NCBI GenBank assembly: GCA_046704245.1
Contig: JBJKSD010000019.1
Coordinates: forward strand, 11,708-75,707
Origin: Bacilli bacterium
Lineage (GTDB): Bacteria; Bacillota_I; Bacilli_A; RF39; UBA660
DNA length: 64,000 nucleotides
Direction of reading: 5' to 3'
In this document: positions 31,785 through 33,115 of the stretch, in pieces
Layout of the letters: each line of letters starts with the position of its first letter
Numbering within the stretch: the first letter of the stretch is position 1
Translations under genes and position numbers: made by a program
The notes under the pieces: model-generated
Told to the model about the DNA's origin: nothing
Database searches by the model: none
Seen by the model: only the letters and a program-made list of their open reading frames with translations

Positions 31785-31970
31785 ATGAACTATAACAAAC
31801 CACTAACATTAAATGAATACTATAAAATAAGAAAAGAGAAAAACGGGGCATTGCTTTTTTATCGGAAGGATTTTAGTGTTTTGAAAACTTCTGATTTTGT
31901 CTTCGATATAATATCAAAAATTGATTTAAAACATTATTCAGTAAACCAATTAATTAGTTACATAATTTAA
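31785..31970 (+). CDS. RRE/PqqD-like N-terminal fragment of the radical SAM maturase (frame-disrupted relative to the downstream body)
   Basis: The 61-aa ORF (LTLNEYYKIRKEKNGALLFYRKDFSVLKTSDFVFDIISKI) looks like a short peptide-recognition element. It ends with TAA at 31968 while the rSAM reading frame opens at 31958 in the -1 frame. Confidence 0.4.
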   Translation: MNYNKPLTLNEYYKIRKEKNGALLFYRKDFSVLKTSDFVFDIISKIDLKHYSVNQLISYII

Positions 31971-33115
31971 AAGAAACAGAAGAGGCATTATTTTTTAGTT
32001 TTGTCCAACATTTATTTAACTCGGGTGTTATTGAATATGGTAATAAAAGAAAAGTTATTTATCCTCAAGTATTTTATAATGTTAATAATAATTTAATTTA
32101 TCAAGCGCCCCAGTTTTTATGGTGGGATATTACAAGTAAGTGTAATTTAAAATGTTATTATTGTTATTCATCAGCCGGTTATATTGATGAAAATGAATTA
32201 ACAACTAATCAAATATATTTAATATTAGATCAAATTCAAAAAATGGGTATATTTTATGTGTTTTTTCTAGGGGGAGAACCTTTTTTAAAAGAAAATTTTA
32301 TTGATATAATTGAATATGCTAGTAAATTAGGGTTGGGAATTATGATAACAACTAATGGTACTATTATAAATTCTAAGATAGCTAAAAAGTTAAGAAATAT
32401 TGATGTATCAGTAATTAGAATAAGTATAGATTCTGCTAACAAAGACATTCATAATTTAATAAGAGGGAGTAATAAATCATTTGATAAATGTATAAATGCT
32501 CTTAAATGTTTATCAAGTGTTGGAATAGAGCACTTAGGCATCAGTACTACATTGGGCCCAGATAATTATAAAGGGATAGAGGATTTAGTAAAATTAGCAA
32601 AAAATTATAAATGTAATCACATACAAATTACTCCGATTAGTCCAGCAGGAAGAGCTCGCGAAACAGGTAAATATTTAAGTATTAAGCAGGTAGAAGAAGT
32701 GAAAAAAGTTTTGGCAGTTTTAATAGAAAAGGAAAGAACTGAGAAAACAAAATTTGTTATTGATGCGCCAGAAGGTATAATAATTAAACCTAATCAAATT
32801 ACAGTATACAAAAATAAAGAAAAAGTAGATTTAATGGGGTGCGGGGCTGGCCGTGTTTGTTTATCAATATATAGTGATGGTAGAGTTGGATATTGCTTAA
32901 TGAATAGAAAAGTGATAGACTCATTAAATAATAATACTTTACTAAAGATTTGGAAAAAAATTAATAAAGAAATAAAGAGAAAAGATAGAGGATTCTGTAA
33001 AAATTGTAAAAATATTGATATATGTGCTGGTCCTTGTATGGTGTTAGAAAACACTTGTGATTGTGAGCGAGAAAAAATAATGAATAATAAATTATTAAAG
33101 GAGGTTGCAAAATGA
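31958..33115 (+). CDS. radical SAM / SPASM-domain peptide-modifying enzyme, copy 1 (body; no in-frame ATG/GTG/TTG before 32243, so it is likely frameshifted from the RRE ORF)
   Basis: The open frame from 31958 encodes WWDITSKCNLKCYYCYS (CxxxCxxC at 32141-32164), then FLGGEPFL and a SPASM cysteine set (CGAGRVC...C...CKNCKNIDICAGPC). The first ATG (32243) lies downstream of the rSAM cluster motif. Confidence 0.65.
   Translation, partial: LHNLKETEEALFFSFVQHLFNSGVIEYGNKRKVIYPQVFYNVNNNLIYQAPQFLWWDITSKCNLKCYYCYSSAGYIDENELTTNQIYLILDQIQKMGIFYVFFLGGEPFLKENFIDIIEYASKLGLGIMITTNGTIINSKIAKKLRNIDVSVIRISIDSANKDIHNLIRGSNKSFDKCINALKCLSSVGIEHLGISTTLGPDNYKGIEDLVKLAKNYKCNHIQITPISPAGRARETGKYLSIKQVEEVKKVLAVLIEKERTEKTKFVIDAPEGIIIKPNQITVYKNKEKVDLMGCGAGRVCLSIYSDGRVGYCLMNRKVIDSLNNNTLLKIWKKINKEIKRKDRGFCKNCKNIDICAGPCMVLENTCDCEREKIMNNKLLKEVAK

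Follow-up and report, generated by a model that had tools for sequence, protein, structure and literature searches.

A one-base frame break in the gene of an RRE-rSAM-SPASM peptide maturase of a Bacilli bacterium, and its probable origin in a recent deletion

Two overlapping open reading frames (ORFs) occupy positions 31785..33115 of the 64-kb stretch of Bacilli DNA analysed here, which we call the window. The first encodes just 61 amino acids (aa). The second encodes a radical S-adenosylmethionine (rSAM) enzyme, with the cysteine motif that holds its iron-sulfur cluster placed ahead of any start codon. Do these ORFs represent two genes or one, and if one, is it broken in the organism, misread in the assembly or deliberately recoded? 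The original prediction took them for the separated parts of a single maturase of peptides that the ribosome synthesizes and that are modified after translation (RiPPs), made up of a RiPP recognition element (RRE), an rSAM body and a SPASM domain, and offered a sequencing indel, a recent pseudogenization or programmed slippage as the cause. Comparison with relatives shows 31785..33115 to be a single gene, which encodes a peptide maturase of about 443 aa with RRE, rSAM and SPASM parts and belongs to a three-gene RiPP cassette. We think that the break is a genuine, recent one-base deletion within 31958..31967 in the sequenced DNA, and give this a probability of about two in three. A second maturase lies 3 kb downstream in the window, and we refer to the two as copy 1 and copy 2.

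The elements of copy 1 are as follows.

31785..31970, forward strand: 5' fragment of the broken maturase gene, 61 aa, from ATG 31785 to TAA 31968-31970
31958..31967, forward strand: overlap of the two open frames, 10 nt, TTACATAATT, to which the frame change is confined
31958..33115, forward strand: 3' fragment of the broken maturase gene, 385 open codons, stop at 33113-33115
32141..32164, forward strand: CNLKCYYC, the radical-SAM CxxxCxxC motif, which holds the [4Fe-4S] cluster and precedes the first start (32243) by 26 codons
32243..33115, forward strand: 290-aa ORF from the first ATG (P0001, an NCBI-sourced record), lacking a Shine-Dalgarno (SD) sequence and the cluster motif

The 61-aa ORF has an SD-like GGGGG at 31774-31778, 7 nt before its ATG. 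The rSAM frame lies one base back from it, is closed by a TAG at 31955-31957 and is open from 31958. Within it WWDITSKCNLKCYYC begins at 32120, and the first ATG, GTG or TTG is the ATG at 32243, codon 96 of the open frame, which has no SD although one is present at most real starts in the window. The Pfam match to Radical_SAM (PF04055, 100.9 bits against a cut-off of 29.5) begins at residue 58 of the open frame, i.e. before that ATG (approximately 32129-32599), and SPASM (PF13186) covers residues 295-351 (approximately 32840-33010) with 24 bits against a cut-off of 21.5. Without the cluster motif, the 290-aa ORF that starts at 32243 cannot work as a radical-SAM enzyme. When the 562-aa and 290-aa products were looked up as exact sequences, no recorded entry was returned. 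The original prediction had placed the end of the first ORF and the opening of the second where we find them, with the cluster motif before the first in-frame start, and had proposed that one missing base keeps the two apart. This too is borne out, in that any one-base insertion inside 31958..31967 fuses both frames.

We scanned all open frames of at least 150 codons in the window, about 50 of which are real. A long startless 5' part is unique to the copy-1 rSAM frame, at 95 codons compared with no more than 28 in the approximately 50 others. From the base composition, the probability of 95 codons without a start is about 0.008, and that of 385 codons without a stop is about 5e-17. The anomaly at copy 1 is real, and not a chance ORF. 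Two other accounts of it were rejected: a non-standard genetic code, since the approximately 50 genes read cleanly under table 11, and initiation at in-frame ATT codons before CxxxCxxC, where there is no usable SD.

For comparison with other proteins we used a fused construct in which both frames are joined (…QLISYII + LKETEE…, 443 aa). A search of 5.8 billion proteins with this construct matched P0001 and eight homologs, P0002-P0009. The homologs, uncharacterized proteins from metagenome and Logan contigs, are 403-446 aa in length and cover 92-100% of the construct with 39-48% identity. Seven of the eight (438-446 aa) cover 97-100% of it, while P0008 (403 aa) begins later and sits on a 1.6-kb contig. 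All eight are single ORFs, none of them frameshifted, and alignment A1 has no gap across the break. Where the window reads SVNQLISYII up to the break and LKE-TEEALFFSF beyond it, one homolog reads SVNELVKYFNISD-EDKNTFIKF, and the homologs have YFNIKE, YFNISD or VFNIKD at the break position. The cluster cysteines C120, C124 and C127 are invariant columns in alignment A1, as are the C-terminal cysteines C371, C405, C408, C414 and C418, which are of the auxiliary-cluster type. A scan of genome contigs with alignment A1, whose back-translated patterns are generic rSAM motifs, gave only distant rSAM-SPASM genes of 24-33% identity. A metagenome search with a DNA pattern across the break, allowing a variable gap, gave 0 matches.

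The gene is flanked by two partners, which complete the cassette.

30077..31765, forward strand: PPDK_N plus PEP-utilizers enzyme (phosphoenolpyruvate (PEP) synthase / rifampin-phosphotransferase-like), intact, the conserved upstream partner
33112..33306, forward strand: precursor peptide, 64 aa, intact, homologous to the 58- and 63-aa peptides beside P0003 and P0005

We call the first of these the pyruvate phosphate dikinase (PPDK)-like enzyme; its real start is probably the ATG at 30092. At two loci of relatives, L082 and L083, a PPDK_N/PEP-utilizers gene (545-548 aa), a fused 441-aa maturase and a peptide (58-63 aa) stand in the same order as in the window, so that the three-gene cassette spans 30077..33306 in the window, 4096-7316 in L082 and 264-3461 in L083. 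The leader of the 64-aa precursor is W-N-I-K-D-L..F..V-D-S-V-E-C and its core is SCPCKCTCTCQCQCRCT. The window and homolog peptides have in common the leader W[DN][IV][KR]DL..F..[VI]D[ST][VI].C, with the variant WDIKDL..F..VDTVGC among the peptides of the cassette, and a cysteine-rich core with CxC/CPC. P0002-P0009 thus share the gene order and a homologous precursor with the window but are single ORFs, whereas the window copy is split at residue 61/62. Since the homologs are single ORFs in the same cassette, the fused form is the normal state of the family. The statement that RRE-rSAM-SPASM is the normal architecture therefore holds, on the eight fused homologs, the synteny of L082 and L083, and full-length matches to SuiB, CteB, SkfB and TigE. 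The copy-1 cassette is otherwise intact.

Where does the break fall in the folded protein? An AlphaFold2 model of the fused sequence was built from alignment A1. It has a mean predicted local distance difference test score (pLDDT) of 82.5 and a predicted template-modelling (TM) score (pTM) of 0.85. Block means lie between 86 and 95 for residues 1-100, and confidence is low at residues 402-443, the SPASM end. The model has strands at residues 13-18, 21-26 and 31-35 and helices at 37-49 and 53-60, followed past the break by a helix at 64-80. In the model these three strands and three helices form a winged-helix RRE, in the order β-β-β-α-α-[break]-α, so that residue 61/62 lies in the α2-α3 loop. 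Helix α3 is encoded after the break, at approximately 31973-32023, and the linker, radical-SAM core and SPASM domain then follow. With Foldseek the whole model matched SuiB with a TM score of 0.70 over 453 columns, and SkfB, CteB and TigE were also matched; the sequence profile aligns with SuiB (5v1q) over positions 9-423. The Pfam PqqD/RRE models gave no match on the small ORF of either copy 1 or copy 2, and we therefore assign the RRE from the predicted structure and from the alignment with SuiB. The break had been placed between the RRE and the rSAM body, but in the model it lies within the RRE. Similarly, the description of the 61-aa ORF as RRE-like is correct for the strands β1-β3 and helices α1-α2, which it holds in the model, but it is not a whole RRE. 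A complete RRE is found only in the artificially fused reading; as sequenced, helix 3 sits in the other frame past the stop codon. With an incomplete RRE in the 61-aa ORF and no cluster cysteines in the 290-aa ORF, neither fragment is plausible as a working protein.

SuiB/StrB (the streptide Lys-Trp cyclase), CteB, SkfB and TigE are RRE-rSAM-SPASM maturases with solved structures, and the fused protein shares their three-part architecture. Like them it has an N-terminal winged-helix RRE, a CxxxCxxC core, a SPASM domain with auxiliary-cluster cysteines and an adjoining precursor gene. Unlike them, copy 1 is only 17-19% identical in sequence, its predicted substrate is a CxC-repeat peptide, its partner is PPDK-like instead of a protease or transporter, and its gene is frame-broken. 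No NCBIfam maturase family reached its cut-off (StsB 106.8 against 625, SkfB 88.4 against 300, PapB 79.9 against 340, with SCIFF not listed). The maturase would thus be an unclassified member of the RRE-rSAM-SPASM class. The label 'sactisynthase-like' is apt for the architecture, but a sactisynthase is not established by the family scores. Among the papers searched we found none on rSAM RiPPs partnered with PEP-utilizing or PPDK-like enzymes, and the combination of PPDK-like enzyme, maturase and cysteine-rich peptide may represent a class of RiPP not described before. Within the cassette the PPDK-like enzyme might serve in phosphotransfer.

The simplest history for copy 1 is then the loss of one base. 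We infer that the DNA itself carries the indel, as opposed to the consensus alone, and that the gene no longer functions. The lost base was probably one A of an ancestral ATA AAT TTA AAA; with that A restored the protein would read SYINLKE, like the YFNIKE and VFNIKD of the relatives. A two-base insertion may have occurred instead of the one-base deletion. Translation from ATG 31785 runs for 61 residues and halts at TAA 31968, so that the product is an RRE fragment that lacks the third helix. In the other 385 codons there is no start codon or ribosome-binding site before CxxxCxxC, and no working enzyme would be translated from them. Of the 73 positions at which the other eight members do not vary, the fused sequence retains 69 (intact homologs retain 84-100%), and there is no internal stop in the 385 codons. 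A deletion would have to be recent, because the rest of the gene shows no decay. In this copy 1 resembles the frameshift pseudogenes of biosynthetic clusters, where a single-base change is found in a gene body that is otherwise intact. An inactivated copy-1 maturase is an ordinary event.

The alternatives have to be weighed together with copy 2, since it too has a break in its reading frame. Its elements are these.

34651..34755, forward strand: streptide-like precursor, 34 aa, MQRIKKYAISNFLDDCHFKKGDGWKVKKSKKSKK, ending ...HFKKGDGWKVKKSKKSKK, with a K-x-x-x-W (KGDGW) motif
34719..35111, forward strand: 130-aa ORF with a complete RRE-like N-terminal part, out of frame past A9
35048..35056, forward strand: A9 run; the window has just one other
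35065..36099, forward strand: 344-aa rSAM-SPASM ORF, ATG 35065, no SD
36081..37811, forward strand: second PPDK_N plus PEP-utilizers enzyme, intact, in the same position as in the relatives' loci L088-L091

The 130-aa and 344-aa ORFs overlap by 47 nt, with the rSAM ORF in the +1 frame, and one A fewer in A9 yields a fused protein of 459 aa. This protein is covered to 92-99% by about 19 fused homologs of 431-471 aa, whose linker length matches, and in the relatives the PPDK-like gene comes directly 3' of the fused homolog, as in the window. Judged against these sequences, copy 2 also departs from its family by a broken frame, but both of its parts are complete, which is not so in copy 1. The best family match of the 344-aa ORF is the KxxxW cyclic-peptide maturase TIGR04080, below cut-off. 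The K-x-x-x-W motif of Lys-Trp cyclization has been described for streptide (PMC5491770). In the relatives the motif appears as ...FFAKGDGWK* upstream of P0039 in L090, and as ...RFKKGDGWKSIPKEKRK at the end of a 208-aa ORF in L088. Cassette 2 looks like a streptide-like (KxxxW) system, from its predicted peptide and maturase, in which a PPDK-like enzyme downstream replaces the protease or transporter. Poly(A) tracts reportedly slip in replication and transcription, and the A9 at 35048-35056 could be a site of slippage in replication, transcription or translation. RNA folding downstream of the copy-2 break was not significant.

The alternative that survives best is an error of sequencing or assembly, in which the organism has an intact 443-aa gene and the consensus is short by one base in a T3/A4 stretch. 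The flawless gene body described above would be expected in such a case, one base suffices to restore a protein collinear with all homologs, and the second break falls in an A9 homopolymer, a classic site of miscalling. At copy 1 however the site offers only T3 and A4 runs. Moreover, an independent k-mer assembly (Logan, run SRR31309759) gave contigs L001 and L087 that are 100% identical to the window over 27587-36344 (8.7 kb). They span both breaks, with no contig end at either, and overlap each other by 17 nt at 32979..32995, which lies within the 3' end of the gene for the copy-1 maturase. An identical k-mer assembly needs accurate and mutually consistent reads. Nothing comparable is seen in about 50 other genes of the window, so that errors would have struck the two maturase genes only. 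The other overlapping ORF pairs that we tested in the window belong to unrelated families, and revealed no further split gene beyond the two maturases. By our own arithmetic, the probability that two random errors in 64 kb both fall inside these 2.7 kb is about 0.002. That both neighbouring maturases are frame-broken fits a locus-wide loss of function better than random errors of the consensus. We therefore regard a consensus error as less likely than a real deletion, and on balance improbable.

Several observations weigh against a real deletion. The Logan contigs probably derive from the reads behind the deposited assembly, and would then exclude an artefact of the assembler and not a systematic read error. 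The support for the sequence at the break is that of assembled contigs. The searched proteins include no homolog between 48% and 100% identity. The aspartyl-tRNA synthetase and the other proteins that were checked are singleton clusters at 90% identity, with no close relative in the collections searched, and for this reason an intact allele in sister strains cannot be shown. The flawless 3' part of the gene suits a consensus error or continued expression equally well. Lastly, a real deletion gives no account of why each maturase has its break in the N-terminal quarter, the PPDK-like gene and the precursor of each cassette being intact.

Could the break instead be read through? If ribosomes shifted by -1, or transcription slipped, at ATAATTTAAAAG, the full-length maturase would be produced in regulated amounts. 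In favour of this, the 3' frame has stayed open and shares 10 nt with the first frame right before a stop codon, and a neighbouring gene of paralogous function is broken at A9, where slippage of polymerase or ribosome is mechanistically plausible. The site itself is poorly suited to it. The zero-frame codons are AGT TAC ATA ATT TAA, which allow no cognate re-pairing one base back, and an X XXY YYZ heptamer is missing. Homopolymers reach only T3 and A4, and A4 is too short for known transcriptional slippage, for which about 7-9 or more would be expected. The 90 nt downstream fold worse than shuffled sequences (minimum free energy -10 kcal/mol compared with a mean of -14.3 kcal/mol, z = +1.48), and Rfam reports no recoding element in the window, only a T-box and three tRNAs. 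The frameshift is moreover absent from all eight homologs (8/8 single ORFs). Programmed slippage at copy 1 is thus unsupported, and we consider it most improbable. The same low standing goes to the broader proposal that both breaks form a control device, in which the frame change parts peptide binding from catalysis and keeps the maturases off or low, and slippage restores them in a fraction of the transcripts or cells, by polymerase or ribosome at A9 in copy 2 and by an unconventional -1 event at ATAATTTAAAAG in copy 1. If true it would lead to stochastic or phase-variable production of two modified peptides. Compared with poly(A)-tract slippage sites, copy 2 has its A9 and copy 1 has no long tract, and reversible switching is therefore not expected at copy 1.

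Genuine gene fission does occur among the distant relatives, and these provide positive controls for a real split. One has a 97-aa RRE ORF with the 345-aa P0010, found in three assemblies, and another an 85-aa RRE ORF with the 352-aa P0049; they are located at L084 7724-9038 and L092 350-1783, and in each the small ORF overlaps the rSAM ORF. At L092 a 41-aa lysine-rich peptide ORF precedes the RRE/rSAM pair. Discrete RRE genes have also been reported in RaS-RiPP operons (PMC13361665). As in these pairs and in PqqD/PqqE, the small ORF of copy 1 precedes and overlaps the rSAM-SPASM ORF. The resemblance ends there: the natural splits hold all three RRE helices in the small ORF, and their rSAM ORF has a GGAG and an ATG of its own before the cluster motif. 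Copy 2 falls between, having the complete RRE and an ATG but no SD. A functional fission of copy 1 into a small RRE protein and a separately translated rSAM protein is the least credible of the readings, since its 61-aa ORF lacks helix 3 and there is no ATG, GTG, TTG or SD before CxxxCxxC, only near-cognate ATT codons without a usable SD. The eight homologs P0002-P0009 are all fused, and a separate RRE with an rSAM gene that has its own start is seen in distant relatives. Of the three causes originally offered, the best fit is a real and recent indel that inactivates the gene; the identical independent assembly makes a sequencing error less likely, and slippage has no support.

A recent deletion in copy 1 has consequences for how the locus is used. 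In annotation, 31785..33115 should be one frameshifted (pseudo)gene, and should not be divided into a hypothetical protein of 61 aa and a 'radical SAM protein' of 290 aa without a cluster motif. In genome mining, the strain is predicted not to make the cysteine-rich peptide product unless the gene is repaired, and the version with one A restored is the proper construct for heterologous expression. The wider value is in the locus as a whole, where an rSAM maturase is twice paired with a PPDK/rifampin-phosphotransferase-like enzyme, in arrangements that are conserved and apparently undescribed. The predicted substrates of the two pairings are a CxC-repeat peptide and a streptide-like KGDGWK peptide.

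Between the two cassettes there is one further gene on the opposite strand.

33349..33828, reverse strand: thioredoxin-fold protein with an N-terminal hydrophobic segment

It is closest to the PedC/BrcD family of bacteriocin-maturation disulfide isomerases, with a score below the cut-off of that family. Upstream of the precursor of cassette 2, 34114..34602 is a 162-codon open frame without an ATG, whose first start is TTG 34198. It is homologous (tblastn 7e-17) to the N-terminal approximately 180 aa of the 208-aa L088 protein (6338-6964) that ends in KGDGWK, and it is in the same frame as the 34-aa precursor ORF, with two stop codons between them. Two readings are possible: a long N-terminal domain of the precursor in the relatives, or an interruption of the window copy. 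The other A9 run of the window, at 37782..37790, encodes part of the lysine-rich tail of the second PPDK-like enzyme, close to the 3' end of its gene. Further upstream in the window there is a T-box leader (24361..24559, 128 bits), which together with the SD usage suggests a low-GC, Bacillota-like anaerobe as host. The leader precedes an operon of 96-, 475- and 474-aa ORFs, which is followed by the aspartyl-tRNA synthetase gene at 27737..29479.

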